Shown here piece by piece: positions 45,955-59,933 of a stretch of DNA of 64,000 bases. The position numbers were made by a program, and so were the translations under genes. Source of the DNA: Bacillota bacterium (GTDB taxonomy: Bacteria > Bacillota > Sulfobacillia > JAJZYS01 > JAJZLH01); assembly GCA_021850485.1 (NCBI GenBank), contig JAJZLY010000025.1, forward strand, positions 114,249-178,248, written 5' to 3'. How positions within the stretch are numbered: the stretch's first letter is position 1; each line of letters opens with the position of its first letter. A model generated the notes under the pieces. The model did no database searches, had not been told where the DNA came from, and worked only from the letters and a program-made list of their open reading frames with translations.

Positions 45955-46030
45955 GGGGGCGTAGCTCAGTCGGGAGAGCGATTGGTTCGCAATCAATAGG
46001 TCGGGGGTTCGATTCCCCCCGCCTCCACCA
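45955..46030 (+). tRNA. tRNA-Ala (anticodon CGC), CCA encoded
   Basis: Manual cloverleaf: acceptor GGGGGCG/CGCCTCC with the G3:U70 alanine identity pair. D arm GCTC-AGTCGGGA-GAGC. Anticodon arm ATTGG-TTCGCAA-TCAAT. T arm GGGGG-TTCGATT-CCCCC. Discriminator A, then CCA. Confidence 0.9.
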
Positions 46031-46122: not shown

Positions 46123-47304
46123 TCAGGGTAGCGGCCGCCGGCCAGGTGCACTCTCCAACAGCTGGTCAAACAGTCCCATCGCCTGTCTCTTGGTCGGTCC
46201 TAACACATGGACGTAGGTTCGGGCCGTGAAGGCGGGGCTTTCGTGGCCCAGGATCGTCGACAGCGTGGTGATGTCCATGCCTGCAAGGAGGGCGAGGCTG
46301 GCGAAGGTGTGCCTGAGAGCATGCACCCCGCCCTGCTTCAGTCCAACCTCTGCCAAGGCCACGTACCATGCTCGGAGGACGTTCCGTTGCCCCATCCATC
46401 CGCCGGCCTCACTGGGGAACACCAGGCCCATCGAGTTCCAGCCCTTACCCCGCATCTGTGCCTCTACCGCCTGAGTCGCTCTATGGTTTCTCAGGATGGT
46501 AGCCGCCTCACCGCTCAGCGGGATCTCCCTGACTCCGCGGGCGGTCTTGGGACGGGTTTCCATCTTCCGGCCGCCGACCTCTACGATCTGCCGCGAGACG
46601 AAGAGCACTCCCTTGTCGAGATCGAGATCACTCCACCGCAGGGCCACCGCTTCGCCAATCCTGAGCCCGCTCCGCCACAACACCGCCAGCAAGGGGCCGA
46701 CCCTGAATCGAGAGTCTGCGACGTCGAGACGGCGAACTTCGTCCAAGGTGTACGACGCGATGACTTTGGAACGTGAAACAGGCCCTCGCACCAGATCCAC
46801 GGGGCTACCAGCCAGGAGTCCGTCCCGAACCGCCTCGTGTAGACATACCCGAAGGATTGAACGGCAGTAAGAAACGGTCCGGTCGGCCAGCCGCCCACCG
46901 CGCGCGCTGGGTTTCGCCGCCAGGGCGGACAACCAGTCCGCTATCTGGGCTCTCGTCAGTTTGGAGAGCGGTGTGGCCCCGAGCGCCGGCAGAATGTGCA
47001 GCCTGGCCATCCTGGCGTAGCTGTCCTTGGTTTTCTCGCTCCACCGTGGAGCAGTTCGCTTCATCCAGGCGTCCAGATACTCGCCGACGGTGATCGCACC
47101 GGGCCGCACAACCCGCATCGGAGACGAGGTGATCTCTGCCTGTCTCCGGGCCCACTCGATCTCGGCCGATCGCCTGGTACCAACGAACGTGTGACTTTCT
47201 CGCGGCCGAGATCCGTCAGCCTGAAGAGGAAGTTGCCAGGTCAGTTTCCAGCGCGAGCACTTACTGGGCGGCTGCCCTTTGAAGGGCCTTGGGCGGATAT
47301 TCAT
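46123..47304 (-). CDS. int: Tyrosine recombinase / phage-type integrase
   Basis: 393 aa with SAM-like N-domain and a catalytic domain containing GLRIGEAVAL (Arg), HALRHTFASL (HxxR) and HESPAFTARTYVH (His...Tyr). Confidence 0.9.
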   Translation of the reverse strand: MNIRPRPFKGQPPSKCSRWKLTWQLPLQADGSRPRESHTFVGTRRSAEIEWARRQAEITSSPMRVVRPGAITVGEYLDAWMKRTAPRWSEKTKDSYARMARLHILPALGATPLSKLTRAQIADWLSALAAKPSARGGRLADRTVSYCRSILRVCLHEAVRDGLLAGSPVDLVRGPVSRSKVIASYTLDEVRRLDVADSRFRVGPLLAVLWRSGLRIGEAVALRWSDLDLDKGVLFVSRQIVEVGGRKMETRPKTARGVREIPLSGEAATILRNHRATQAVEAQMRGKGWNSMGLVFPSEAGGWMGQRNVLRAWYVALAEVGLKQGGVHALRHTFASLALLAGMDITTLSTILGHESPAFTARTYVHVLGPTKRQAMGLFDQLLESAPGRRPLP

Positions 47305-48686: not shown

Positions 48687-49010
48687 TCAGCCGACGGTCA
48701 CCTCCTCCGAGCGACTCTTCGGAACGCGCGCGTTGTGGCGGCCCGTCTGGTGCGGTACGCTCCCTGCAAGACGGATCGTGTTCGACACACCGTCCCTAGT
48801 TTGGTGTGCATCCCGAATGGGGAAGGCTGCCTCGAGTTGGGCGAAGGGGAGGTCGAACAGAGCGGCCATGCGGTGTATCACCCTTCGGGACGGGTTCCGC
48901 TCCCCCGACTCGATCTTCTTGATGTGTAAAGCGGAGATGCCCAGGCACGACGCCAGAGCCTCACGCGTTAGGCCTGCTCTCTGCCGTAGGTCCCGTAGCA
49001 CTTGAGCCAC
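48687..49010 (-). CDS. XRE family HTH regulator (cI-like)
   Basis: LRQRAGLTREALASCLGISALHIKKIESGERNPS is a classic HTH_3/XRE motif. Divergent from a second XRE gene. Confidence 0.8.
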   Translation of the reverse strand: MAQVLRDLRQRAGLTREALASCLGISALHIKKIESGERNPSRRVIHRMAALFDLPFAQLEAAFPIRDAHQTRDGVSNTIRLAGSVPHQTGRHNARVPKSRSEEVTVG

Positions 49011-49086
49011 TTTGTAGCCCCCTGTATAGGTACCCCTTGTTTCGAACGCCCTCTTTTGTACCCATTGTGCAGGAGGTGATCCTTGG

Positions 49087-49536
49087 GTGTCAATCCCCCC
49101 AGGTAAAGAAACTTTCGGTAGCCGTTTCCGAATAGCGCGGCAGCTAAGAGGTCTGACGAGGGAAGACGTTGCGTCTCACCTTGGGTGCACGTTTTATCTC
49201 ATCAAGAAATGGGAATCGGGAGACCGTGCGCCCAATGCCCTGCTGTTGCCAGACATTGAGAAACTCTTGGACGTGGACATGAGATGGCTTCTTGGACGTC
49301 CCGGTGCTCCGAGTCCCGAATCACGCGGACCGGCCTCCGCGCCCAAACCACGAGCGTCCTCTCCCTTGACCGAGGAGAGGCGTCAGGAACTGAGAGAGAT
49401 CAGAATGAGGCGGCGGAGGCCGATTCGTCCGACCGACCTGGATGGGCCAGGTGGCACAGCACCTCCTCCCGAAACAGCTGCACCTGGTCAGGGAAGTGGG
49501 CGTCCTGCCAAGCCCAGGAGGCCATCAGAAGACTGA
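49087..49536 (+). CDS. XRE family HTH regulator (Cro-like) with Pro/Arg-rich tail
   Basis: GTG start preceded by AGGAGGTGA. FRIARQLRGLTREDVASHLGCTFYLIKKWESGDRAPN HTH motif. The C-terminal ~80 aa are low-complexity and of doubtful reality. Confidence 0.7.
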   Translation: MSIPPGKETFGSRFRIARQLRGLTREDVASHLGCTFYLIKKWESGDRAPNALLLPDIEKLLDVDMRWLLGRPGAPSPESRGPASAPKPRASSPLTEERRQELREIRMRRRRPIRPTDLDGPGGTAPPPETAAPGQGSGRPAKPRRPSED

Positions 49537-49726
49537 TGGCGGTCAGTCGGGTCTCATGGTCGAGGCCGCGGCAGAACAGCGCGATGTCGCCAAGGATCTC
49601 TTCCCGCATGGGCCACCCCCGCACCGCCAATGAAGCAGGTAGGTTTTACCATGCGCCAAGCCTGTCGCCTGCGTGATGTCGGCGTGACTGGCAGGACTTC
49701 CATCTGAATAGCGTAACAGGGCCAAG

Positions 49727-49990
49727 ATGTTAGAACCTACAGGCTTCGTGCGACGGGTGGACGAATTGGGCCGGGTGGTCCTGCCCAAAGAACTGCGCGG
49801 CCGCTTCGGAATCGTCGACGGCGACGCGGTGGAAATCTGGGTGCAGGACGACCAGGTGATGCTCGCCAAGCACATCGAGACATGTGTGTTCTGCGGTGGT
49901 CAGGAGAACCTGGCCGCCTTCAAGGGCAAGCGGGTGTGCCGGCCATGCCAAGTTGAGGCGGCTCGCCGCCAAGCCCCCCCCCCCGGCTGA
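49727..49990 (+). CDS. AbrB/SpoVT-type DNA-binding protein with C-terminal CxxC...CxxC element
   Basis: GFVRRVDELGRVVLPKELRGRFGI matches the AbrB swapped-hairpin N-domain. It is followed by CVFCGG...CRPC. Confidence 0.75.
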   Translation: MLEPTGFVRRVDELGRVVLPKELRGRFGIVDGDAVEIWVQDDQVMLAKHIETCVFCGGQENLAAFKGKRVCRPCQVEAARRQAPPPG

Positions 49991-49994
49991 CGCC

Positions 49995-50849
49995 TCAGCG
50001 CGGCAGGGGCCGTGCCGCCCGCACCCCGGCAGGGCGACCGGTCGTCACTCCCAGCTCGTCCACCACCAGCTGGCACGGCGACGGCATCGGGTGAGCGGCC
50101 GGCAGGCCGAGCAGGAATCCCTGCCCGTACTCCGCCCCCAGTTCGCACAGCACCCGCAGCTCCTCCACCGTCTCGATGCCCTCGACGATCACCCTGATGC
50201 CGAGGTCTCTCATCAAATTCAGCACCGCCCTGACCACGATCCGGCGCTGGCGGTCGGCGTCCAGCCCCTCCACCAGGTAGCGGTCGATCTTGATCATGTC
50301 CGGCTGCACCGCCAGCACCGTGCCCAGCGAGGAGTGGCCGGTGCCGTAGTCGTCCAGCACGATGTGGTGCCCGGCCTCCCGCCATCTGTGTAGCCGCTCC
50401 AGCGCATGGGGATGGCCGAGCACATCCTGGTGCTCCGACACCTCGATCGCCAGGCGGTCGGGGTGCACCTCCTTGCCGTCGGCGTCTGCCGGCCACACGT
50501 CGTATCGCAGGTCGACGTTCATGAACAGCAGTTGGTCCTCACCCAGCGCCTGCCGTCCGGTGGTCAGCGCCAGGCGTTTGCAGGCCTCTTCCAGCTGCCG
50601 GCCCTGCTTGCCGCGACGCGCCCGCCGCACGATCTCGCCCGGCGCCTCCCACTGCGACCCGACAGGCCCGCGCACCAGCGCCTCGTGCCCGATCACCTGG
50701 CCGGTCCTGAGGTCCACGATCGGCTGCAGCGCCATCCACAGCGTTTTGAGGAATGCCATGTCCCACCACGGTCCTTCCACGGTGCGCTGATGGTCCTCTC
50801 TGCACCGCTTTCCACCCAATACCTCCCAGATTCGTGCCCAAACTAGCAT
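49995..50849 (-). CDS. Stand-alone EAL-domain protein (predicted c-di-GMP phosphodiesterase)
   Basis: LQPIVDL, GHEALVR, FMNVD, IEVSEH, LDDYGTGHSSL, IKIDR, VEGIET and EYGQGF motifs: all canonical EAL catalytic positions appear present. Start is ATG 50849 or 50759. The ORF extension to 51392 overlaps the upstream gene. Confidence 0.8.
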   Translation of the reverse strand: MLVWARIWEVLGGKRCREDHQRTVEGPWWDMAFLKTLWMALQPIVDLRTGQVIGHEALVRGPVGSQWEAPGEIVRRARRGKQGRQLEEACKRLALTTGRQALGEDQLLFMNVDLRYDVWPADADGKEVHPDRLAIEVSEHQDVLGHPHALERLHRWREAGHHIVLDDYGTGHSSLGTVLAVQPDMIKIDRYLVEGLDADRQRRIVVRAVLNLMRDLGIRVIVEGIETVEELRVLCELGAEYGQGFLLGLPAAHPMPSPCQLVVDELGVTTGRPAGVRAARPLPR

Positions 50850-50878
50850 CCCCTGTATCCTGCCCGCATTCAGCCCCT

Positions 50879-51805
50879 CTAGCCAGGCCCTGGCGGCCCG
50901 GCTCCACGCGCCGTGGCCGTCACCAACTCGGACAGGGGGCCGACCCCAGTTCCATGGCACCTGGTGCACGGCGTCAGGCCGTCCTTGTCGTCGAACAGGG
51001 ATCCCCGCCCGCCACAGGCCGAACACGGGACCGCCCTGAGGGCGGCGGGGGTAGGTGGTACGGCCTGCCGTTCGGCTGCAGCCAAGAAGAACTGCCAGGA
51101 GCTGATCGGCTCCGCTTTCTTGGTGCGGCGATGCCGTTCGGCGGCATGCTTCACGGCGGCTTGTGCTGCTGACAGGGTGCCGCAGGCTTGGATGAAGGCT
51201 GCCGCCTGCTCCGTCTTGGGCACAGCCCTCGGTGCCAACGACCGGACCAGTGCCACCAGGTCTGCCACTCCCTCCGGCTCCCCACCCGTAGGGCGAACGT
51301 CGTCGTCCTGCGTCTGGTTGCCAGTGTGCCGATCCGACACAGACCTGACGATGACGGTTGAGTCTTTCTCCCCTGGGTCTTTGCTTAAGCAAGGACCGGA
51401 CCCCTGGGTCCGGTCTGGAGCGGACATATACTTCCGGTCCTGACCGGACATTTTTGTCCGGTCAGGAGTATCGATCGGCATGATTTCGTACAGGTTCGGC
51501 TGCTGCAGGCCCCGCCGGTGGACCTGCACCAGGTGCTCTTCTTCCAGTTCCTTCAGCCCGCGCCGCACCTGGCGGTCCGTGCATCCTAGATCGGCGGCCA
51601 TCGTGGCCTGATCCGGGTGGCACGCCCCGTCCTGCCAGGCGTAGGAGAGCAGCACGCCGTACAGGACCTTCGCCCCGGAGGAGAGCGTGCGGGACCGCAG
51701 AACGCAGTTCGGCACCTGGGTGAACCCGCCGGCCAGCCGCACGTCGGTGCCGCGGGCGAAGAAGACCGGCGGCTGGTCCCGGTCCTGGTCGACTGTCCTC
51801 GGCAT
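50879..51805 (-). CDS. Replication/HTH protein (HTH_36-like N-domain) with C-terminal DnaJ-type zinc finger
   Basis: GFTQVPNCVL...LSSGAKVLYGVLLSYAW...CHPDQATMAADLGCTDRQVRRGLKELEE is typical of phage/plasmid replication-associated winged-HTH proteins. C-terminus CSACGGRGS...CTRCHGTG. Confidence 0.6.
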   Translation of the reverse strand: MPRTVDQDRDQPPVFFARGTDVRLAGGFTQVPNCVLRSRTLSSGAKVLYGVLLSYAWQDGACHPDQATMAADLGCTDRQVRRGLKELEEEHLVQVHRRGLQQPNLYEIMPIDTPDRTKMSGQDRKYMSAPDRTQGSGPCLSKDPGEKDSTVIVRSVSDRHTGNQTQDDDVRPTGGEPEGVADLVALVRSLAPRAVPKTEQAAAFIQACGTLSAAQAAVKHAAERHRRTKKAEPISSWQFFLAAAERQAVPPTPAALRAVPCSACGGRGSLFDDKDGLTPCTRCHGTGVGPLSELVTATARGAGPPGPG

Positions 51806-52113: not shown

Positions 52114-52596
52114 GTGGCGGACCCGACTGAGAGGGGTCTCATTGAGATCATCGGCCATGAGCATGAGCACGTGCGTGCGGCAGAGGTTTCCGAGTTCCTC
52201 CGGAATTACAAAGCCACGTATACCGCCATCCAGTCTTCGTGGATGGTGAACGAATTCAGCCTCCCCGCTCTCCAGGATGAAGCGACTCGTGCACATCTTC
52301 AGGAGTTGTCAACTGCCTACCTTGATGATTTCAGGGTCAGAAATGGACCCTGGGCCAAGCAGGATGCCTTTCGGTCGGTACTGGTGAGGGACGATCTGTT
52401 TCTCCTCAGGTTCACGACCGAGAGCCCCTACGTATTTTTGTTCGACGCATCTATTGTGGCAGGAGTTCTGGCCGTGCTTCTCTGCGGAGGAGAGTTTGAG
52501 TTGACCCTCGTACCTCCCCGTGTTCGCGTCCGCCAGTCTAAGTCGCTGGGCGAAGCTCTTGAGGATCTGAAGCGTGCTTGGCGACACAGACGGTAG
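52114..52596 (+). CDS. Hypothetical protein (160 aa), possible C-terminal TM segment
   Basis: GTG-initiated ORF with coding-like codon usage in the lower-GC block. The hydrophobic stretch FLFDASIVAGVLAVLLCGG is present. Convergent with the nucleotidyltransferase genes. No known motif. Confidence 0.45.
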   Translation: MADPTERGLIEIIGHEHEHVRAAEVSEFLRNYKATYTAIQSSWMVNEFSLPALQDEATRAHLQELSTAYLDDFRVRNGPWAKQDAFRSVLVRDDLFLLRFTTESPYVFLFDASIVAGVLAVLLCGGEFELTLVPPRVRVRQSKSLGEALEDLKRAWRHRR

Positions 52597-52702: not shown

Positions 52703-53587
52703 CTAGGGGTAGTACATGCCGAAAATGTGGCGATAGATCTCGTGCATCTTCGCAAAGTCACCTTCCGCGGCAGCGGCTTCTGCCCTCAAGCATCTGTCGT
52801 ATGCAGATCCGACTTTACTGATGGCCGCCGCACGAGAAGTCTCAGTTAGATAAGCACTGACCTTGCCATCGGTTCCGGCGGGATCACTCAGTTCATATCT
52901 AAGCCTATCCCGAGCCTTGTCAAAAAAGTAGCAGGTGTTCTGCCAGTCCGACTGCATGTTGAGGTGCGACCACCACGAGGACCCAAAAATCGACCAGGCA
53001 AGAACCTCAAGATGGAACGAGCGTAAGGGGCTGTTCGCGGCTTGATTCCATGCCTTGAGTTGTTTGATGCAAGGCACCAGGCGGCCCTCATGGAGCCCGT
53101 TGACCAGGGCTGAGAGTTCGACGTGCTTCTTAGGATTCGTCTCGATCCACTTGTCACCCCCCGAGTCGCAAATGTCCCAAGTGGGCTCCAAACCGGAGCT
53201 GTTCCACCAGGGTCGGCGAAACGCGGGGACCACATCAACAAGAAAGTCGCTGAAGGAGACAGTTACGGCTTGCCCATTGCGGCTGATGCGTGGCGTCCGC
53301 GGATATGTTAGCATCAGTGCCTTCCGCGTGAGTTCCAGTACGGCTCGGGCGTGGCGGGCCCGGTAGCCATCATCCAGGACGACAACAATGTCTATGTCGG
53401 CCTTCGTGAGCGGTGCTATCAAGGTCTGTCGACGATACGACCCAGTCAGAAAGTCATCAACGACGGTGAGCTGGCTGGCTACAGCTTGTCGGACATTTCG
53501 TTGCCTGGTTGCTACCGTTTCATCTTGCAGGTCTGTGAGGTTGAGGTTGTGGCGCAATTGCTCAAATGCCTGCCTTCGTGTCAGCAT
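52703..53587 (-). CDS. SMODS/CD-NTase-like nucleotidyltransferase, copy 2
   Basis: 294 aa. Pol-beta NTase triad GSYRRQT...ADIDIVVVL ... FLVDVVPAF, then a PAP/OAS-like helical domain with LRSFHLEVLAW. Confidence 0.7.
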   Translation of the reverse strand: MLTRRQAFEQLRHNLNLTDLQDETVATRQRNVRQAVASQLTVVDDFLTGSYRRQTLIAPLTKADIDIVVVLDDGYRARHARAVLELTRKALMLTYPRTPRISRNGQAVTVSFSDFLVDVVPAFRRPWWNSSGLEPTWDICDSGGDKWIETNPKKHVELSALVNGLHEGRLVPCIKQLKAWNQAANSPLRSFHLEVLAWSIFGSSWWSHLNMQSDWQNTCYFFDKARDRLRYELSDPAGTDGKVSAYLTETSRAAAISKVGSAYDRCLRAEAAAAEGDFAKMHEIYRHIFGMYYP

Positions 53588-53653
53588 CCGCTTCCCACTC
53601 CGATTACCATAGACTCGGCATCCACCCCTCTAGTGGTGTTGGTGATAGGCACA

Positions 53654-54523
53654 CTAAGCTGGAAACTCCTCTCCCAATTCGATACGCCAGAGCCGCTTGG
53701 CCTCAGTGTGATTGCCTCGGGCCTCCATGAGTAGGGCCAGTTTCGCACGCGCCAAGGCTTCACTGAACCTCGACTCCAGGGCCAACCGATCAATCTCGGT
53801 AAGGTAGCCGTCGAGATTTCCGGAGTGGCCAGCTGGGTCCGCACACGTGACCCGCCTGGACGCCGCTTCGAAAAAGCACTTCAGGTTATCCCGATGGTTG
53901 GAGTCGACCGCCTTAAACATCTTCGCCACCATAACTTCTAGATGGTATGGCTCAAAACGGCGGCTGTGAACGACGTTCCACCGCCGAGCCAGTTTGACCA
54001 GAGGCGTGAGGTTGGTGCCAACGGATGCATGTCGTGCTGAGTACCATTTGGCCTGATACTCGGGGTCTGTGGTCATCCAGTTGCCGTCGCCTTTCGGTAA
54101 AGCGAATCCGCCATCACGCCACTTAAAGACAGGCGCGATGTCGACATGAGCGCCGGACGTATAGAACAGCCGAACGGCCTGACCTCTTGCACCGATCTTC
54201 TTGATCGATGTCTTGGCGTTCAATGCCATTCGGATCCGTTGAAGGAAGACATCGGACTCGGAGCGATATTGTTCAAAGATCCCTTCCCTGTTAACGAATA
54301 CAGCCATCACGTCGATGTCCTGAACGGGTCGAATGATGGTTCCCCGAGCCGCAGAGCCAATTAGGATGACTCGACTAAGGGGTAGCGTGCTCGATGCGGG
54401 GAAGGCCTTGCGCAAGTTTCTCTCAGTGGCTTGCCGCTTATCAGAAATGTCTTGTTTCTGCGAATCTGTAGGGCTGATCGCTTCCAGAAACGCCGCGAAC
54501 GCCTGGGCCGTCGTGAGTGCCAC
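53654..54523 (-). CDS. SMODS/CD-NTase-like nucleotidyltransferase, copy 1
   Basis: 289 aa. GSAARGTIIRPVQDIDVMAVF ... AHVDIAPVF triad and FEPYHLEVMVA helical-domain motif. The GTG start shares 1 nt with the SLATT TAG (TAGTG). Confidence 0.7.
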   Translation of the reverse strand: MALTTAQAFAAFLEAISPTDSQKQDISDKRQATERNLRKAFPASSTLPLSRVILIGSAARGTIIRPVQDIDVMAVFVNREGIFEQYRSESDVFLQRIRMALNAKTSIKKIGARGQAVRLFYTSGAHVDIAPVFKWRDGGFALPKGDGNWMTTDPEYQAKWYSARHASVGTNLTPLVKLARRWNVVHSRRFEPYHLEVMVAKMFKAVDSNHRDNLKCFFEAASRRVTCADPAGHSGNLDGYLTEIDRLALESRFSEALARAKLALLMEARGNHTEAKRLWRIELGEEFPA

Positions 54524-55059
54524 TACTGATCGACCCGGAATCGCTGCGACCCGCCGTCAATTTGCCTCTTTGCCCTTTGCCAAGCGCGGGAAGAGGTGAT
54601 CTCCGACTCATGGTTGAGCTTCTGAAGCCGCCTGACCAGTTCACTTAGCTGCTGACGAGCCTCAGTGTCTGATAGAGCAACAAGATCGACATGGAGGAAG
54701 ATGCGGCTGTCTTGCTGGAGTGCTCGGTACGCGTTGGCGGCAGCGGACGCCTTTGCTTTTCCATGTCGCGGCCCGATCGACGCGGCAACAGCTCCAACAG
54801 CTGCCGCCAGTAATGCGATCCATCCCGCCCAGGTCCTCGACAAGATCGTGGAAAGGCCGGTGACTCCTGCGACGGCCGCCAGCACTGCCGAGGTAATCCC
54901 TAACCACTGCTCCCAGAAACCCCAGTGTTTCGCAAACTCGAATTGACACTCGGAAGCATATGTTGCCGACTCCTCAACGCGCTCGGCCTCTCGGCGGATC
55001 TCGTCCCGGTGCGCCGACAATATTTCTGGAGGTGTCTTCCCCTCTTGGTCGTCCGCCAT
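54523..55059 (-). CDS. SLATT-like two-TM protein (predicted membrane effector)
   Basis: 178 aa. Helical N-region, two adjacent TM helices (WLGITSAVLAAVAGVTGLSTI and WAGWIALLAAAVGAVAASIG), then a helical tail with AANAYRALQQDSRIFL. ATG preceded by GGAGAGGGG. Confidence 0.65.
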   Translation of the reverse strand: MADDQEGKTPPEILSAHRDEIRREAERVEESATYASECQFEFAKHWGFWEQWLGITSAVLAAVAGVTGLSTILSRTWAGWIALLAAAVGAVAASIGPRHGKAKASAAANAYRALQQDSRIFLHVDLVALSDTEARQQLSELVRRLQKLNHESEITSSRAWQRAKRQIDGGSQRFRVDQ

Positions 55060-55077: not shown

Positions 55078-55794
55078 TTAGCTGTTGAGAAAGCCACGCA
55101 CATGAGCTTCCATAGCCGCCGCGAACCGCCGGAATGTTAGCGAGGCGCCCGGAAACGTGACCTCTGTAGGGTCCGACTTAGTAGCTAATGCCAGGCAGCA
55201 GCTGTTGTACTTCCGTTCGAGAATAAGCCGTTCACACAGCACCTCGTATCGTCTTGCGTAGGAAGCGCCCTTAAAGATTGGATCGACTTGGAAATGCCGC
55301 TCCGAGTTTCGGACGGGTGTGTGAACCCTTGGGCAGTCTTCAAACAAGAAGACGTAGCCTAGGAAGGGCGCTGGATGCTGTCCGAGCCGGCCTTCCCGAA
55401 AAGCTGTCCAAATATCCTCGGCGTTCCCAATCGCCTCTTCGGTTCGGTTGTTGAAATTATTACCGAAACTCGGACCCACCTGCGACTTCAACTCAACCGC
55501 AAGCACAAGCTTACCGTCCACCACCGCGACGAGATCCCACTTCTTCTCTGGACGGTAATAGCCTGGCAGCTCCAAGGCGCTCTGGGTGCTCACATGTTTG
55601 GAGTTAAGGCCCGCCGCCACCAGAACACTGGTAAGCAAGGTCGCAATGGCACCCATATGGGTGCCACCGGTAACAGCTCCGCGAGTACCAGCGTCGGCCT
55701 TGCCTGCGCTCATCTGCTTCTGCTGTTGCCGCTGCCGGCCGTGCCAGAAAGCTTGGACGGCCTCTGAGAACTGCCTGTCGAGGTCGTCTAGCAT
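55078..55794 (-). CDS. Type II restriction endonuclease, XhoI/PaeR7I family
   Basis: 238 aa with ELKSQVGPSFGNNFNNRTEEAIGNAEDIW, which I recognise as the conserved core of PaeR7I/XhoI-type enzymes. The ATG overlaps the methylase stop (ATGCTAG). Confidence 0.65.
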   Translation of the reverse strand: MLDDLDRQFSEAVQAFWHGRQRQQQKQMSAGKADAGTRGAVTGGTHMGAIATLLTSVLVAAGLNSKHVSTQSALELPGYYRPEKKWDLVAVVDGKLVLAVELKSQVGPSFGNNFNNRTEEAIGNAEDIWTAFREGRLGQHPAPFLGYVFLFEDCPRVHTPVRNSERHFQVDPIFKGASYARRYEVLCERLILERKYNSCCLALATKSDPTEVTFPGASLTFRRFAAAMEAHVRGFLNS

Positions 55795-57533
55795 CCGAAC
55801 ACAGCAGCTCGGTCACCGATTCCATACGCCTCGACGGCAGCACTGGTCGCAGCCTGGGCATCGCGGGCTTGAAATGCATGGCGCAGCCGTTCGTTCAGCG
55901 AGGGGGCGAGAGAGGCGGGATCGGGAACGCGAATCCGTCGGAGGTATTGCGCCTGAAAACGTAAGGTTCCACCGCGCATTTTCACGCAGTATGCCTCGAT
56001 GAACAGTTCTGCGACCTTGGATAGAAGTAGTCCGCCAAGTACCTCCAGGTCCCAAAGGTCGGAGGTCAAGTAGTAGAGGTTGTGGTGAGGGTAGGTCTTT
56101 CCAACGTCGAGCGTCGGATTGCTCATGAGCTTCATGTCAGGGAAGTAGAGTTTGTCTTGTCGGATCAGTCGGTGGTTGACCCGGTCAATCGTCCGGTACC
56201 AGTTCTTCGCCTTGTTTCGAACGATGTGCCGCCGCTCTAAAGCGTCACGTCGCGCCTCCAGATACTGCCGCAACCTTGGGTAGACATCGAGATCGACAAG
56301 GTTGCCGTTCGCTTGCCAGGGATTCACAAGGTAGTGGCCCGACCAATTCACCACTCCGCCTCGGGTGTCTTCGGACATGGCGAGGGGGAGCAATCGCTCA
56401 GGCTCGACCACACTTGCGTCCTGGGTAACATAGACACGGTCGGCTCCCGTTGCCACCCCGATGCCGACCTTGGTGCCCGTGTACTCATCCTCCAAAGGAC
56501 GGTACCGCTCCTCCAGATGGCGGAGTAGCTCGAGTCGATGCGACTGGAGCGACGGCCAGGGACTGCTGCCCTTAACCCAGTCGGCAACCCTTGTCGCGGA
56601 AAAACCTGGCACGTCACCTTGTCCCCGATCGGCCAAATCAATGACACCATCCGCAAGGTTCCTGCCGCCTGGCGCTGGCCCGGCGGTCGCTCCGCCACTG
56701 GCAACGAGGGTACTGCCTTGCGGGGCTCGCCTGATGGTGATTACAGCCGGGTAGGCTGACACGTTCTCCTCGAAGGCGGGCGCCTCGTGCATCTCGATGA
56801 CCGCCTCCATGCTGTACCCGGCAGAGATGAGGCGCCGGAGCTCAACACCATATGCACTCCTCATCCACCTGTCAGCACAGATGAAACCAAGTGCCCCGCC
56901 TTGCCTCAACTGACGGAGCCCCGCTTCAAAGAACCCGATGTAGATGTCGCCTCTGCCAATCATCGTCGGGAGTACTCGTCGATAGCGAGCGAACACACCA
57001 GCTGGGAGATCGTCGTATCGGATATACGGTGGATTGCCAACGACGAAGTCAGCACTGCGATCCTTCGAAGCGTTCAATAGATAGTCTCCGGTTGTCACCC
57101 AACCTTCAGCAACCTCATGCGCCTGACGCGCCGGTGCGCCGTGTTTGAGTAACTCCCTCGTCGCTAGATCAACCAGCCGACGCGCTGCGGAAGCATCAAT
57201 CTCATAGGCATGGAGTGCATGCTCCACGTCGGTCAACTGGTGACCATGGGCCTCGAGAGAGACAAGGAGCCGCCGGATCATCGGTAGAAGAAATGCCCCT
57301 TCTCCAGCCGCTGGCTCCACGGCGTATCGCTCTGCGAGGTCGTGAGACGATCGGTAGCCAACTAGGTCGAGAATCAGGTCAACGACCCACGGCTTGGTGT
57401 ACACAACGCCCCTTAGGTCTCTAGCCGGGGCTAGAGCCGCCTGGGACCTGTGGTTGCCCGGGCCATCTCCGAAGAGATCGCGGTCTGGCTCCGCCAAGGC
57501 AATATGGGCCGCTGTCTCCACTGCGCCTATCAC
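55788..57533 (-). CDS. N6-adenine DNA methyltransferase (gamma class, Eco57I/TaqI-like)
   Basis: 581 aa. AdoMet motif VEPAAGEGAF followed by the catalytic FVVGNPPYIRY, then a large target-recognition region. Paired with the endonuclease. Confidence 0.8.
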   Translation of the reverse strand: MIGAVETAAHIALAEPDRDLFGDGPGNHRSQAALAPARDLRGVVYTKPWVVDLILDLVGYRSSHDLAERYAVEPAAGEGAFLLPMIRRLLVSLEAHGHQLTDVEHALHAYEIDASAARRLVDLATRELLKHGAPARQAHEVAEGWVTTGDYLLNASKDRSADFVVGNPPYIRYDDLPAGVFARYRRVLPTMIGRGDIYIGFFEAGLRQLRQGGALGFICADRWMRSAYGVELRRLISAGYSMEAVIEMHEAPAFEENVSAYPAVITIRRAPQGSTLVASGGATAGPAPGGRNLADGVIDLADRGQGDVPGFSATRVADWVKGSSPWPSLQSHRLELLRHLEERYRPLEDEYTGTKVGIGVATGADRVYVTQDASVVEPERLLPLAMSEDTRGGVVNWSGHYLVNPWQANGNLVDLDVYPRLRQYLEARRDALERRHIVRNKAKNWYRTIDRVNHRLIRQDKLYFPDMKLMSNPTLDVGKTYPHHNLYYLTSDLWDLEVLGGLLLSKVAELFIEAYCVKMRGGTLRFQAQYLRRIRVPDPASLAPSLNERLRHAFQARDAQAATSAAVEAYGIGDRAAVFGC

Positions 57534-57741: not shown

Positions 57742-58512
57742 TTAGTCCGTTTGCGCTGGGGTTGCTCCCGCCAGTTCCCGCTGCATTGCCTTCTTGAGCT
57801 TCTCTAGGTCATCGGCGATTCCGACCTCCAGCCGCTGTCTCTCCTCATACCCGCTGGTGCCGTTGTATTGCTCAAACCGACTGCTGGCCAGGTATCGTCC
57901 CATGTGCACGCTTATTGCGCGACAGATCTCGTCGACATCGTGAGAAAGAAACAGGCCAGAGCGCAGGCAAAGGTTGCGAGCCTGCTCGAAGGCTCGCCGC
58001 GCCTCCAACTTCTGGCGTTCACGCAGAAGGATCTGGAGCTTAGACTGAACCGCTCTAGGAAGTGGCTTGGCCCAACACGCACAGACCTGCTCGCGCTCCC
58101 TCTTGGAGATACCACGTTCCCGAAGATAGATCTCCGCCTCTTCAGCAGACAGAACGGAGAAATCCGGGTATTCGACGAAGCCGTAGAGGCCCATCATGAG
58201 CGACTGTGCCTCCAGGAATGTGCGGTAAATTGCCGGATAGTTCGCGTGGCGCTCGGCCGTGAATAGGCCAAAGTCCTTGAGGCGCTTCTGGTACTCAAAG
58301 TCCAAGGTCATCTCGAGGACAGAAACTTGCTTTCTGAGTTCCGCCTCGAACGCTGCCTGAGAGAGATCTAGCCGATGTTTGTACGCCTCAAGCTTCTTGT
58401 CAAATAGGCTATCTACCGCGGCAAGGGCCGTAGCTCTAAAGAGCAGGAGCCCAAGCGCGGCCAGAATACTGACTCCACCGAGGTAACTGAGGATAGTCTG
58501 AGCCACGTTCAT
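57742..58512 (-). CDS. Hypothetical membrane-anchored coiled-coil protein (256 aa)
   Basis: N-terminal TM (ILSYLGGVSILAALGLLLF), then charged helical and coiled-coil segments. No motif I recognise. Lower-GC block. Confidence 0.5.
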   Translation of the reverse strand: MNVAQTILSYLGGVSILAALGLLLFRATALAAVDSLFDKKLEAYKHRLDLSQAAFEAELRKQVSVLEMTLDFEYQKRLKDFGLFTAERHANYPAIYRTFLEAQSLMMGLYGFVEYPDFSVLSAEEAEIYLRERGISKREREQVCACWAKPLPRAVQSKLQILLRERQKLEARRAFEQARNLCLRSGLFLSHDVDEICRAISVHMGRYLASSRFEQYNGTSGYEERQRLEVGIADDLEKLKKAMQRELAGATPAQTD

Positions 58513-58633: not shown

Positions 58634-59569
58634 TTACCGACCCCTCCCTATCGCCGCCACTGGCTCAGGGCTTCGCACCTGCTGAATCTCGTTCTCCTTC
58701 ATCTGTTTGAGCTCCACCCGGTTGATGATCGTCTGGGCCGCCTTCTGGATGGTCGCCCCAACTCGCTTCACGATCTTCGGCCCTTCCTCGCCGCTCCAGT
58801 CGGCCACATAGCCGAAGGTGTAGTCCGAGGTGTCGATCCCGAAGTGCTCGCAGACCACGAACGCCGTGCCTTCGGCCTCAGCCTCCTCGATGGCTCTGTC
58901 TCTCTTCGCGCCAGGCATTCCGTGCCCGCACCAGTGATGCGCCAGTTCGTGACAAAGTGTTTTCGCTGTCTGGTCGGCTGCCAGGCTCTTTGCTAGAACG
59001 ATGGTCTGGGTGGTGCGTTGGTAATAGCCCTTGGCACCGCGCAGCTCTGACGGGTCTCGGTAGACGACCCGCAGGCCCTCATGTTCGGCCGCCAGAACCA
59101 GCCGACCAAGAAGCAGCCGTGCCTCCTCGCTGTTGCCGGTGAGGTCACGGGCAGGGTGCTCGGGCAGACCTTTCCCTTCTGTCTGGGTCCAGTCCCATAC
59201 ATAACCCACCTTGAAGAAAACCGGCTCCCGCTTGGCTGTTTTCGTCTCCGCGGGCTCTACCGAATCGGCGGTAGACCGTGTTTGGTCCGACGGGCCTTTG
59301 CGGGGGAAGATCGGGACCAGGATCTGGATGCCGTGCTCGCCCTTCTTCACATGGCGGTCAAGAGCCAGCCACGAATGGTAGCCAGCAATTTTCGTGGCAT
59401 TGGGGAACTGAGACAGCACCAGAAGCACGTTTCCCAAACTGTACCCGTGCAGTTTGGCCTGGGCCTTCAGCAGCCGTCTCCACTCGTCTGACGACTGGAT
59501 GGCACTCACTCCGTCCTCCAGCCTCTTGAGCAGCTCCTTGACGTCTGTTGCCAACAGGATCACCCCCAC
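58634..59569 (-). CDS. ArdC-like protein: ssDNA-binding N-domain plus HExxH metalloprotease domain
   Basis: LHGYSLGNVLLVLSQ...IAGYHSWLALDRHVKKGEHGIQILVPIF resembles the ArdC/DUF1738 N-domain. LCHELAHHWCGHG is a zincin HExxH. GTG 59569 follows GGAGG. The longer form overlaps the upstream ORF. Confidence 0.6.
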   Translation of the reverse strand: MGVILLATDVKELLKRLEDGVSAIQSSDEWRRLLKAQAKLHGYSLGNVLLVLSQFPNATKIAGYHSWLALDRHVKKGEHGIQILVPIFPRKGPSDQTRSTADSVEPAETKTAKREPVFFKVGYVWDWTQTEGKGLPEHPARDLTGNSEEARLLLGRLVLAAEHEGLRVVYRDPSELRGAKGYYQRTTQTIVLAKSLAADQTAKTLCHELAHHWCGHGMPGAKRDRAIEEAEAEGTAFVVCEHFGIDTSDYTFGYVADWSGEEGPKIVKRVGATIQKAAQTIINRVELKQMKENEIQQVRSPEPVAAIGRGR

Positions 59570-59609
59570 AAGAAAAAGGGATCGCCTCCGAAGAGGCGAC
59601 CCCTTGGTC

Positions 59610-59933
59610 CTACCGATCCACCTGCAGCGAGCCACCCCGGCTGATGGCCTTCTTGACCACCCGCTCCTGCTCGACCCGGTCCCGGTTGAACTGGTCACGG
59701 ATCAGCTTGGCTGCCCCGACGAAGATTTCAGCCTGGCCTGCATTGCCGACGAAGCCCTGGTCGATGGCCTCTTTTTCGCTGATCACCGTTTCCCCGTAGT
59801 GGCCGAGCGCCCAGGCGGCGCCGTCCTGTAGCGGACCTGCCTCCCGTTCCGGCAGGATTCCCGCCACCTCCGCCAGGGTCTCCCGGACGGCTGTCAGTCG
59901 TGGACTGAGGCCGAGACTAGTTCTCGTCTCCAT
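59610..59933 (-). CDS. Hypothetical protein (107 aa)
   Basis: ATG 59933 preceded by a strong GGAAAGGGGAGAGGAGA RBS region. No motif. Confidence 0.45.
   Translation of the reverse strand: METRTSLGLSPRLTAVRETLAEVAGILPEREAGPLQDGAAWALGHYGETVISEKEAIDQGFVGNAGQAEIFVGAAKLIRDQFNRDRVEQERVVKKAISRGGSLQVDR

Follow-up and report, generated by a model that had tools for sequence, protein, structure and literature searches.

CBASS is usually described as the pairing of one cyclase with one effector, and the usual definition of its type I has two genes. SMODS-SLATT and SMODS-S_4TM conflict systems have been predicted by comparative genomics, and the corresponding Pfam family names derive from these predictions. 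Type I operons with a transmembrane (TM) effector are exemplified by EcCdnD12-4TM (bioRxiv 10.1101/2023.05.21.541620) and, as summarised in PMC13434031, by CdnB-Cap14; SLATT proteins have been discussed as mobile pore-forming effectors (PMC9226505). Panoptes combines mCpol with an S-2TMbeta effector (PMC12657218), and Hailong, in the summary given by PMC13434031, combines the HalB NTase with the HalA channel. By these accounts, the second of them a summary, a synthase and its effector can be governed by a signal that is made constitutively and is inhibitory, as a guard against the counter-defences of phages (PMC12657218; PMC13434031).

We analysed a 64,000-nt stretch of DNA from a Bacillota bacterium (hereafter, the window) that encodes a SLATT protein followed by two cyclases, here termed CycA and CycB. 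The trio is an uncharacterised two-cyclase form of known CBASS defence, with a swappable second cyclase. The features discussed below are as follows.

54523-55059, minus strand: SLATT-family 2TM protein, 178 aa, ATG start; predicted pore-forming CBASS effector
53654-54523, minus strand: CycA, CD-NTase/SMODS cyclase, 289 aa, GTG start
53588-53653, minus strand: CycA-CycB spacer, 66 nt, read from the sequence
52703-53587, minus strand: CycB, second, divergent CD-NTase/SMODS cyclase, 294 aa, ATG start; final gene of the operon
55078-55794, minus strand: XhoI-family type II restriction endonuclease (Pfam XhoI, E=1.5e-75), 18 nt upstream of SLATT
55788-57533, minus strand: Eco57I/TaqI-like N6-adenine DNA methyltransferase (PADLOC MTase_II PDLC03313, E=1e-182; Pfam Eco57I, E=1e-15)
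53530-55020, limits approximate: recombination block comprising most of SLATT, the whole of CycA and the spacer, replaced relative to L096, the closest relative

According to both the ORF list and the sequence, SLATT, CycA and CycB are co-directional, and they lie in a block of lower GC content (0.54-0.60 over about 52.0-58.5 kb versus 0.64-0.70 on either side), as the original prediction had described. The junctions that it reported are likewise present in the sequence: base 54523 is common to the TAG of SLATT and the GTG of CycA (caGTAGTGgc), and 66 nt separate CycA from CycB, whose ORFs share a reading frame. A purine-rich GGAGTGGGAAGCGG stands immediately 5′ of the CycB ATG. A scan for internal promoters and terminators returned no more candidates than shuffled sequence did, and the 66-nt spacer yielded none that is convincing. 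The operon is flanked by restriction-modification genes, an ArdC-like gene and genes of unknown function.

Profile-HMM searches with SMODS, CBASS cyclase and 2TM-effector models match the three genes. The first gene had been proposed to encode a SLATT-like protein, and it probably belongs to that family: the product scores 91.8 bits against NCBIfam SLATT_4 (NF033632; cut-off 55) and matches the PADLOC CBASS 2TM effector PDLC00710 over residues 12-178 with E=7e-46, and its score against Pfam SLATT_4 (PF18186), 21.4 bits, is under the gathering score of 27. Kyte-Doolittle analysis places hydrophobic segments at residues ~52-73 and ~76-97. An AlphaFold2 model (pLDDT 84.6) is all-helical, with helices at 11-67, 75-94, 97-128, 131-151 and 157-169, and hydropathy and model together give the two adjacent TM helices with flanking helices that are the feature of this class. 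A patch of conserved residues lies next to the membrane segments (Q39, F40, K44 and W46; Y111, R112, Q115, Q116, D117 and R119). The protein contains no recognisable nucleotide-binding domain, finds no PDB sequence match at E<=10, and its model has no fold match at E<=0.001, the only matches being non-specific helical bundles (E>=0.28). HalA was considered as a solved relative and discarded, as it matches in neither sequence nor fold.

Both downstream genes encode SMODS/CD-NTase proteins with intact catalytic residues, in agreement with the original prediction. Against Pfam SMODS (PF18144; gathering score 26.5), CycA scores 73.6 bits and CycB 78.6 bits, and both match the PADLOC cyclase PDLC00823 over their full length (E=5e-86 and E=2e-78, respectively). 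Scores against the NCBIfam equivalog for the CBASS oligonucleotide cyclase (NF041117, CBASS_cyclase_b) are 132 bits for CycA and 195 bits for CycB, both below the cut-off of 200; by the NCBI threshold, the two proteins are relatives, not equivalogs, of that enzyme. They are 27% identical to each other (E=3e-24). CycA carries the motifs IGSAARG...QDIDVM...HVDIAP, and CycB carries TGSYRR...ADIDIV...LVDVVP. The pol-beta catalytic residues (G-S, DxD and the third acidic residue) are thus present in both, and they are at least 98% conserved in each family: CycA residues G56, S57, D69, D71 and D128 are each kept in 115-117 of 117 family cluster representatives, and CycB residues G49, S50, D64, D66 and D118 in 107-108 of 108. 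Judged from their sequences, both cyclases look active. The closest solved relatives of CycA by sequence are Pseudomonas aeruginosa CdnD (6p82, E=7e-12) and Escherichia coli CdnC. For CycB, an AlphaFold2 model (pLDDT 89.8, pTM 0.87) retrieves only CD-NTases and cGAS among its best 50 Foldseek matches in the PDB, with P. aeruginosa CdnD at TM scores of 0.82-0.86. An identity as MNT-, ANT- or KNTase-type nucleotidyltransferases, non-signalling families that would have undercut the predicted role, is rejected on these grounds, since NTP_transf_2 scores of both cyclases fall below the cut-off and the best 50 fold matches of CycB are all CD-NTases or cGAS (for CycA, the argument is from sequence).

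The closest described systems each share part of this arrangement. As in type I CBASS with TM effectors, a CD-NTase accompanies a small membrane effector, with no Cap2/Cap3 or HORMA/TRIP13; PADLOC CBASS cyclase and 2TM-effector models match the window genes, and the genes lie in a defence island carried by a mobile element. Searches of the ORFs that neighbour the operon found neither Cap2/Cap3 nor HORMA/TRIP13, nor any other accessory gene of CBASS. The locus thus encodes the CD-NTase and the CBASS-class effector of type I but has two cyclase genes instead of one, and these two divergent enzymes are present per effector. It further departs from type I operons with TM effectors in that the effector gene comes first and that its product consists of SLATT_4 only, with neither SAVED nor a beta-barrel nor any other domain recognised as binding a ligand. 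Type III CBASS supplies the closest solved sequence relatives of CycA and CycB, namely P. aeruginosa CdnD (6p82, 6p8u) and E. coli MS115-1 CdnC (6p80), at E=7e-12 to 2e-16, and type III CdnD/CdnC are also closest to CycB by fold, but no HORMA/TRIP13 is found in or near the window operon, which sets it apart from that type. In related HORMA-CdnX-S_4TM-CycB loci, the HORMA-adjacent cyclase is CdnX and not CycB. The SMODS-SLATT and SMODS-S_4TM predictions describe the same domain pairing, in which a nucleotide synthase acts on a pore-forming membrane effector; unlike those generic predictions, the window trio has two recurrent cyclases, the second of them swappable. Panoptes and Hailong likewise consist of a nucleotide synthase and a membrane effector of small size, but they have one synthase per effector, their effectors are of other families, and the window enzymes are SMODS proteins rather than mCpol or HalB; no Panoptes- or Hailong-type synthase or effector was matched by sequence or fold among the window genes. 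The original prediction knew of no characterised system with this architecture, and we found none in the literature searched; a two-cyclase CBASS is not described in the searchable literature as far as we found, and a prior description is possible.

The arrangement recurs among relatives. SLATT-CycA-CycB is intact in at least eight distinct lineages (the window, which equals L102, and L096, L003, L010, L012, L030, L031 and L032), and CycA-CycB is also present in L016 and L019, whose contigs end upstream. Throughout the trios, CycB is the last gene of the operon, on the same strand as CycA and directly behind it. The CycA-CycB spacing elsewhere is about -17 to +16 nt in most, often 13-16 nt or an overlap, and no conserved same-strand gene follows CycB in the trio loci compared. 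The expectation that the gene order would be conserved therefore holds in at least eight lineages, but the three genes do not form an obligate unit. SLATT proteins of this one clade are found with CycA but no CycB (L001, L002, L005, L098 and L099) and with CycB directly behind it but no CycA (L017, L020 and L033). In the SLATT tree, single-cyclase loci are interleaved with trios: SLATT of the CycB-only locus L017 is 75% identical to that of the trio L030, and the CycB-only L020 and CycA-only L001 proteins are 79% identical. Three loci that retain SLATT-CycA (L004, L097 and L100/L101) have lost CycB or have it in a decayed form. These cases show CycB to be dispensable, which could mean that it adds little.

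CycB also occurs in other company. HORMA-CdnX-S_4TM operons end in CycB copies that are 78-84% identical to the trio CycB, and more distant relatives are the primary cyclase of two-gene systems, either CycB-SLATT (~19 loci) or CycB-S_4TM (~10 loci). In L035 and L036, CycB is convergent to the neighbouring operon and not within it. SLATT-CycA is the co-inherited core pair, and CycB is a modular 3′-end add-on.

Comparison with L096 reveals how the parts have been exchanged. Measured in steps of 150 nt, the DNA of the restriction-modification genes is 92-99% identical in the two loci; identity is 82% in the boundary window 55023-54874, about 61-78% from ~54870 to ~53530, and 85-99% over CycB. Synonymous divergence (dS) follows the same course, at 0.19 for the methyltransferase, 0.09 for the XhoI endonuclease, 1.48 for SLATT, 1.44 for CycA and 0.28 for CycB, and protein identities are 78% for SLATT, 73% for CycA and 93% for CycB. 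SLATT and CycA were therefore swapped together, in an exchange that did not involve CycB. Between L003 and L010, identities are 82% for CycA, 76% for CycB and 34% for SLATT, and between L030 and L032 they are 88%, 71% and 92%, respectively. Across distinct trios, the pairwise identities of CycA and CycB correlate moderately (r=0.58). All five cassette genes are under purifying selection, with dN/dS of 0.09-0.24 (0.15 for CycB versus L096). Shuffling of parts in this way is the pattern expected of partners joined by a diffusible signal, not by a co-adapted protein interface.

Modularity, shuffling and the decayed CycB copies favour two independent cyclases with one effector over an obligate heteromeric enzyme; two signals, or one copy as a regulator, the other options in the original prediction, may also apply. 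We propose a type I CBASS-like operon in which two independent sensor-synthases would share one pore-forming SLATT effector, a reading that we consider evenly balanced between right and wrong. CycA and CycB would each detect infection in its own way, and each would produce a nucleotide signal accepted by the same SLATT effector, a small protein that would cross the inner membrane twice and is predicted to form a pore as an oligomer. The signal is most likely a cyclic oligonucleotide, because of the CdnC/CdnD-like affinity of the cyclases. The operon would then operate as an OR-gate leading to abortive infection, which may widen the range of phages countered or make evasion harder for phage proteins that act against only one of the cyclases or degrade only one of the signals. 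Signal gating of SLATT is an assumption, since no nucleotide-binding domain can be recognised in it and searches by sequence and fold retrieved no solved relative; anti-phage function, the identity of the products, gating of SLATT by both products and pore formation are all inferred. If effectors are signal-specific, the finding of one CycB lineage behind both SLATT and S_4TM makes a shared signal harder to explain.

CycB may instead have no functional link to its neighbours and be an independent or orphan enzyme that happens to have landed behind the last gene of defence operons, either a second-CBASS remnant without an effector or one whose effector is elsewhere, that does not feed the adjacent SLATT. 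This explanation, which we regard as improbable, draws on the movement of CycB among unrelated operon types, its 66-nt separation from CycA in the window, its convergent orientation in L035 and L036, and its dispensability in the decayed loci. Such a bystander would not be expected, however, to keep a constant position and strand behind CycA in at least eight lineages, mostly at -17 to +16 nt, nor to retain an intact active site under purifying selection. The place of CycB directly behind the same SLATT clade where CycA is missing (L017, L020 and L033), and the lack of a conserved same-strand gene after CycB in the trio loci, also argue against it.

The operon could alternatively be guarded in the manner of Panoptes or Hailong, with one cyclase, most plausibly CycB, making a constitutive nucleotide that holds the effector closed, or a decoy, such that depletion by phage sponges or nucleases would open the pore. 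Negatively regulated synthases with small TM effectors do exist (Panoptes, PMC12657218; Hailong, as summarised in PMC13434031), CycB behaves as an add-on to CBASS operons that have a TM effector and would be complete without it, and the effector gene stands first, with a cyclase translationally coupled to SLATT. Both enzymes are ordinary CD-NTases, however, rather than mCpol or HalB, and no match to OptE/S-2TMbeta or to HalA was obtained for the effector. CycB-family relatives are the sole cyclase in many two-gene CBASS-like loci, and CycB has decayed without loss of SLATT (L004, L097 and L100), which is unexpected if its product keeps the pore closed; we consider a guard of this type quite unlikely. 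Least probable of all, and in our view very doubtful, is the heteromeric synthase of the original prediction, at least as an obligate CycA-CycB heterodimer or hetero-oligomer making a single signal for SLATT: the adjacency and common direction of the genes in at least eight lineages (often 13-16 nt apart or overlapping), the catalytic residues kept in both and the correlation of r=0.58 are compatible with it, but either cyclase is found alone with the same SLATT clade, CycB is decayed beside intact SLATT-CycA in three loci, close CycB copies stand behind CdnX and S_4TM, and the SLATT+CycA block was swapped relative to L096 while CycB stayed 93% identical.

Under the reading of two independent sensor-synthases, the trio is a recurrent case in which two divergent cyclases, both intact and under purifying selection, serve a single minimal membrane effector, and one of the two, CycB, hops between operons whose effectors belong to unrelated families. 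If the effector is fed by both, CD-NTase triggering could be compared through two sensors in one genetic background, the trio would be a natural system for the gating of SLATT/S_4TM effectors that lack a known ligand-binding domain, and it would test whether bacteria stack sensors or signals against phage anti-CBASS proteins. Loci that naturally have one cyclase or a decayed CycB suggest which genetic controls would be informative. More speculatively, and in our estimate unlikely, CycB may represent a portable "second-sensor" class of cyclase for CBASS with sensor-less membrane effectors (SLATT/S_4TM), making either a chemically distinct, co-accepted signal or a decoy or guard nucleotide, and thereby defeating phage anti-CBASS sponges, nucleases and cyclase inhibitors. 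Were this so, minimal TM effectors would act as receptors that are promiscuous or take several ligands, and the arms race would gain a new layer in dual-signal CBASS.

Two further candidates were examined and set aside. An ORF on the plus strand (52114-52596) was rejected as a second effector, as its PADLOC match is weak (E=0.014), it is convergent to the operon, and it lies outside the conserved cassette. Phage-borne spread was rejected as the main route of dissemination, since the viral contig collection yielded just a single relative of CycB, and a distant one. A search within the window for a second copy of at least 14 nt from the tRNA-Ala 3′ end, which would mark an attachment site, found none. 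The CBASS genes and the XhoI-type restriction-modification genes make up a small defence cassette, carried on an element integrated beside tRNA-Ala in a Sulfobacillus-like genome. The methyltransferase is the partner of the XhoI-family endonuclease, with which its gene overlaps by 7 nt, and the endonuclease is part of a separate defence system, although it is co-inherited with the CBASS genes. The order MTase-XhoI-SLATT-CycA-CycB is shared with L096, L102 and L003/L023.

The three co-directional genes of the original prediction are borne out by the ORF list, in the predicted place and within a lower-GC block (GC 0.54–0.60 across ~52.0–58.5 kb versus 0.64–0.70 on both sides). The TAG of the 178-aa protein (SLATT) and the GTG of the first nucleotidyltransferase (CycA) do share a base, 54523; the 66-nt spacer between CycA and the second nucleotidyltransferase (CycB) is 53588–53653, and every motif quoted was found in the sequence. 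The features of the region are:

45955–46030, tRNA-Ala (CGC), adjoining the chromosomal rsmH-murE-murF cluster
46123–47304, tyrosine integrase, after the tRNA-Ala and on the opposite strand to it
52114–52596, plus strand, 160-aa ORF on the other flank of the cassette
52703–53587, minus strand, CycB, 294 aa
53654–54523, minus strand, CycA, 289 aa, GTG start
54523–55059, minus strand, SLATT, 178 aa
55078–55794, minus strand, XhoI-family restriction enzyme, directly upstream of SLATT
55788–57533, minus strand, Eco57I/TaqI-like methyltransferase, upstream with the XhoI-family enzyme
57742–58512, minus strand, 256-aa ORF with an N-terminal hydrophobic segment, upstream of the methyltransferase
58634–59698, minus strand, ArdC-N-like domain and zincin/IrrE-type metallopeptidase domain in one fusion protein, lying just upstream of the cassette

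From methyltransferase to CycB, successive genes are separated by a 7-nt overlap, 18 nt, a 1-nt overlap and 66 nt, spacings compatible with a single five-gene transcript; a scan of the sequence revealed no conspicuous internal promoter or terminator in the run.

Both nucleotidyltransferases are SMODS/CD-NTases, as proposed. They exceed the Pfam SMODS cut-off of 26.5 bits (CycA, 73.6; CycB, 78.6), match the PADLOC cyclase PDLC00823 over their full length (E=5e-86 and 2e-78, respectively) and are 27% identical to each other; both miss the NCBIfam equivalog cut-off of 200 bits (132 and 195). The nearest solved structures for both are Pseudomonas aeruginosa CdnD and E. coli CdnC, an affinity that hints at cyclic trinucleotide-type products. 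The AlphaFold2 model of CycB (pLDDT 89.8, pTM 0.87) superimposes on P. aeruginosa CdnD with a TM of 0.82–0.86 in Foldseek, and all of its best 50 hits are CD-NTases or cGAS. The catalytic residues are intact: across 117 CycA-family and 108 CycB-family cluster representatives, the G-S motif, the DxD and the third Asp are each present in at least 98%. Pfam models of the MNT and ANT types, the families named in advance as a refutation, stayed below threshold for both proteins, so that this objection does not apply.

The first gene is SLATT-like, scoring 91.8 bits against the NCBIfam SLATT_4 cut-off of 55 (Pfam SLATT_4 falls slightly under threshold, at 21.4 versus 27), and its match to the PADLOC CBASS "2TM effector" model extends over the full length (E=7e-46). 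The protein has two hydrophobic segments (aa ~52–73 and ~76–97) and an all-helical AlphaFold2 model (pLDDT 84.6); neither sequence nor fold searches returned a solved relative. Its conserved polar and aromatic residues (Q39, F40, K44, W46 and Y111, R112, Q115, Q116, D117, R119) group on two juxtamembrane helices, which the model places on the same side of the membrane and which may form a candidate gating or ligand site.

Related loci came from scans of genomes with CycA and of metagenomes with a CycB alignment, together with exact-protein look-ups; all their ORFs were typed by HMMs made from homologues. The SLATT-CycA-CycB order recurs, intact, in eight distinct lineages: the window (L102), its closest relative L096, L003 (=L023), L010 (=L027), L012 (=L013–L015 and L029), L030, L031 and L032. 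CycA-CycB is present on two contigs cut upstream (L016 and L019). Among these lineages, identity is 64–88% for CycA, 59–93% for CycB and 31–93% for SLATT. Elsewhere, SLATT-CycA is accompanied by a decayed CycB (truncated in L004, a 35-aa remnant abutting an integrase in L097, frameshifted in L100/L101) or stands without trace of it (L001, L002, L005, L098, L099 and the more distant L007 and L009); SLATT-CycB occurs without CycA in L017, L020 and L033, and in L011 CycB is accompanied by a frameshifted SLATT. Distant CycB relatives are the sole cyclase of two-gene loci, either CycB-S_4TM (~10) or CycB-SLATT (~19).

In neighbour-joining trees of CycA, CycB and SLATT, trios, single-cyclase pairs and S_4TM contexts interleave. 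The CycB of an S_4TM operon (L021) is 84% identical to that of the L003 trio, which is only 62% identical to that of the window trio; the SLATT proteins of L017 (CycB only) and L030 (trio) are 75% identical, and those of L020 (CycB only) and L001 (CycA only) 79%. Pairwise identities among the eight distinct trios correlate loosely (CycA-CycB, r=0.58; CycA-SLATT, r=0.21; CycB-SLATT, r=0.36). Such free shuffling fits a diffusible-signal link better than a co-adapted protein interface.

The most economical reading, which we hold with middling confidence, is a type I CBASS in which CycA and CycB would be separate, independent sensor-synthases that both serve one common pore-forming effector, SLATT. 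It rests on four findings: the same SLATT clade is also found with either cyclase as its sole partner, the catalytic residues of both are intact, partners are freely shuffled, and CycB-family enzymes serve elsewhere as ordinary primary cyclases. It is unlikely that CycB lacks a functional link to the neighbouring effector. Slightly less probable again is that the add-on cyclase acts as a guard or decoy, a role for which Panoptes and Hailong offer an analogy. The same data disfavour the obligate heteromeric CycA-CycB synthase originally suggested first, which is about as improbable as the guard or decoy role.

Directly upstream of the trio, the XhoI-family enzyme and the methyltransferase are inherited along with it, making a five-gene cassette. 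The pair lies at 55078–57533 (minus strand) in the window, 383–2826 in L096, 2008–4406 in L003 and 1–1058 in L102, and the link persists at deep divergence (in L003, the methyltransferase is 63% and the XhoI-family enzyme 68% identical). Homology between the window and L096 runs from ~57570 to ~52700 and defines a portable block of ~4.9 kb. Within it, DNA identity is 92–99% for the methyltransferase and XhoI genes (dS 0.19 and 0.09) and 85–99% for CycB (dS 0.28), and ~61–78% for SLATT and CycA (block ~54870–53530; dS 1.48 and 1.44), with 82% in the boundary window for SLATT. This recombination mosaic, spanning ~53530–55020, indicates that SLATT and CycA were exchanged together, with retention of the restriction-modification genes and CycB. 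Against L096, dN/dS is 0.09–0.24 for all five genes, and thus selection maintains CycB where present.

In a second two-cyclase architecture, a CBASS that includes HORMA and a TM effector carries an additional cyclase at its end; it is found in L021 (1572–4876), L022 (1570–4879), L028 and L034, and in the contig-cut loci L018 and L026. The L021-type order is bacterial HORMA_2, a CdnD-like cyclase (CdnX), the S_4TM effector and, last, a CycB-type cyclase. CycA-like cyclases occupy the post-S_4TM position in two cultured organisms, where the order is cyclase, S_4TM, CycA-like cyclase: Arthrobacter sp. J3.49 plasmid pJ349-116 (L104; NC_019339.1, 73138–75730), whose RefSeq labels are generic ('nucleotidyltransferase', 'S-4TM family putative pore-forming effector'), and Mycobacterium sp. 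OTB74 (L008; 3552–5876), whose upstream cyclase, of 170 aa, appears truncated. In L035 (4124–7437, minus strand), L036, L051 and L053, a very divergent third SMODS protein (of 312 aa in L035) comes after HORMA-CdnX-S_4TM, and a CycB gene is convergent on the opposite strand. In a distant CycB clade (L063, L065, L068, at ~2240–4873 in L063, and L078, 3992–6460), another weakly related cyclase-like ORF lies less than ~1 kb away, so two-cyclase arrangements may extend beyond the two types analysed.

SLATT, CycA and CycB all fall within families already catalogued for CBASS, and RefSeq contains the Arthrobacter cyclase-S_4TM-cyclase example, so novelty does not lie in the sequences. What may be new is the architecture: the searchable literature yielded no description of two divergent cyclases accompanying a single sensor-less TM effector, nor of a portable second cyclase; an earlier mention of either is possible.

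The tRNA-Ala/integrase site is likely the left end of an integrated element carrying the defence cassette. Within the window, the tRNA-Ala 3′ end has no repeat of at least 14 nt, and the right end was not located by this means. Proteins at least 90% identical to those of the housekeeping genes carry the label Sulfobacillus sp. MAGs. The ArdC-like fusion belongs to the anti-restriction type of protein that conjugative elements typically carry. Pfam, NCBIfam and PADLOC gave no family match for the flanking 256-aa and 160-aa ORFs, neither of which belongs to the block common to the window and L096. Between the integrase and an EAL gene, within 48687–49990, are two Xre-type HTH ORFs arranged divergently and an AbrB/SpoVT-like ORF (49727–49990), which, judged by sequence, are probably the regulatory switch of the element. 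The EAL-domain (cyclic-di-GMP phosphodiesterase-like) ORF is itself on the mobile element, ~1.3 kb from the CBASS genes (ORFs 49995–51392 and 50879–51805, both minus strand). Because ~500 nt of its long N-terminal extension are shared with an HTH_36 ORF, its real start is probably internal.
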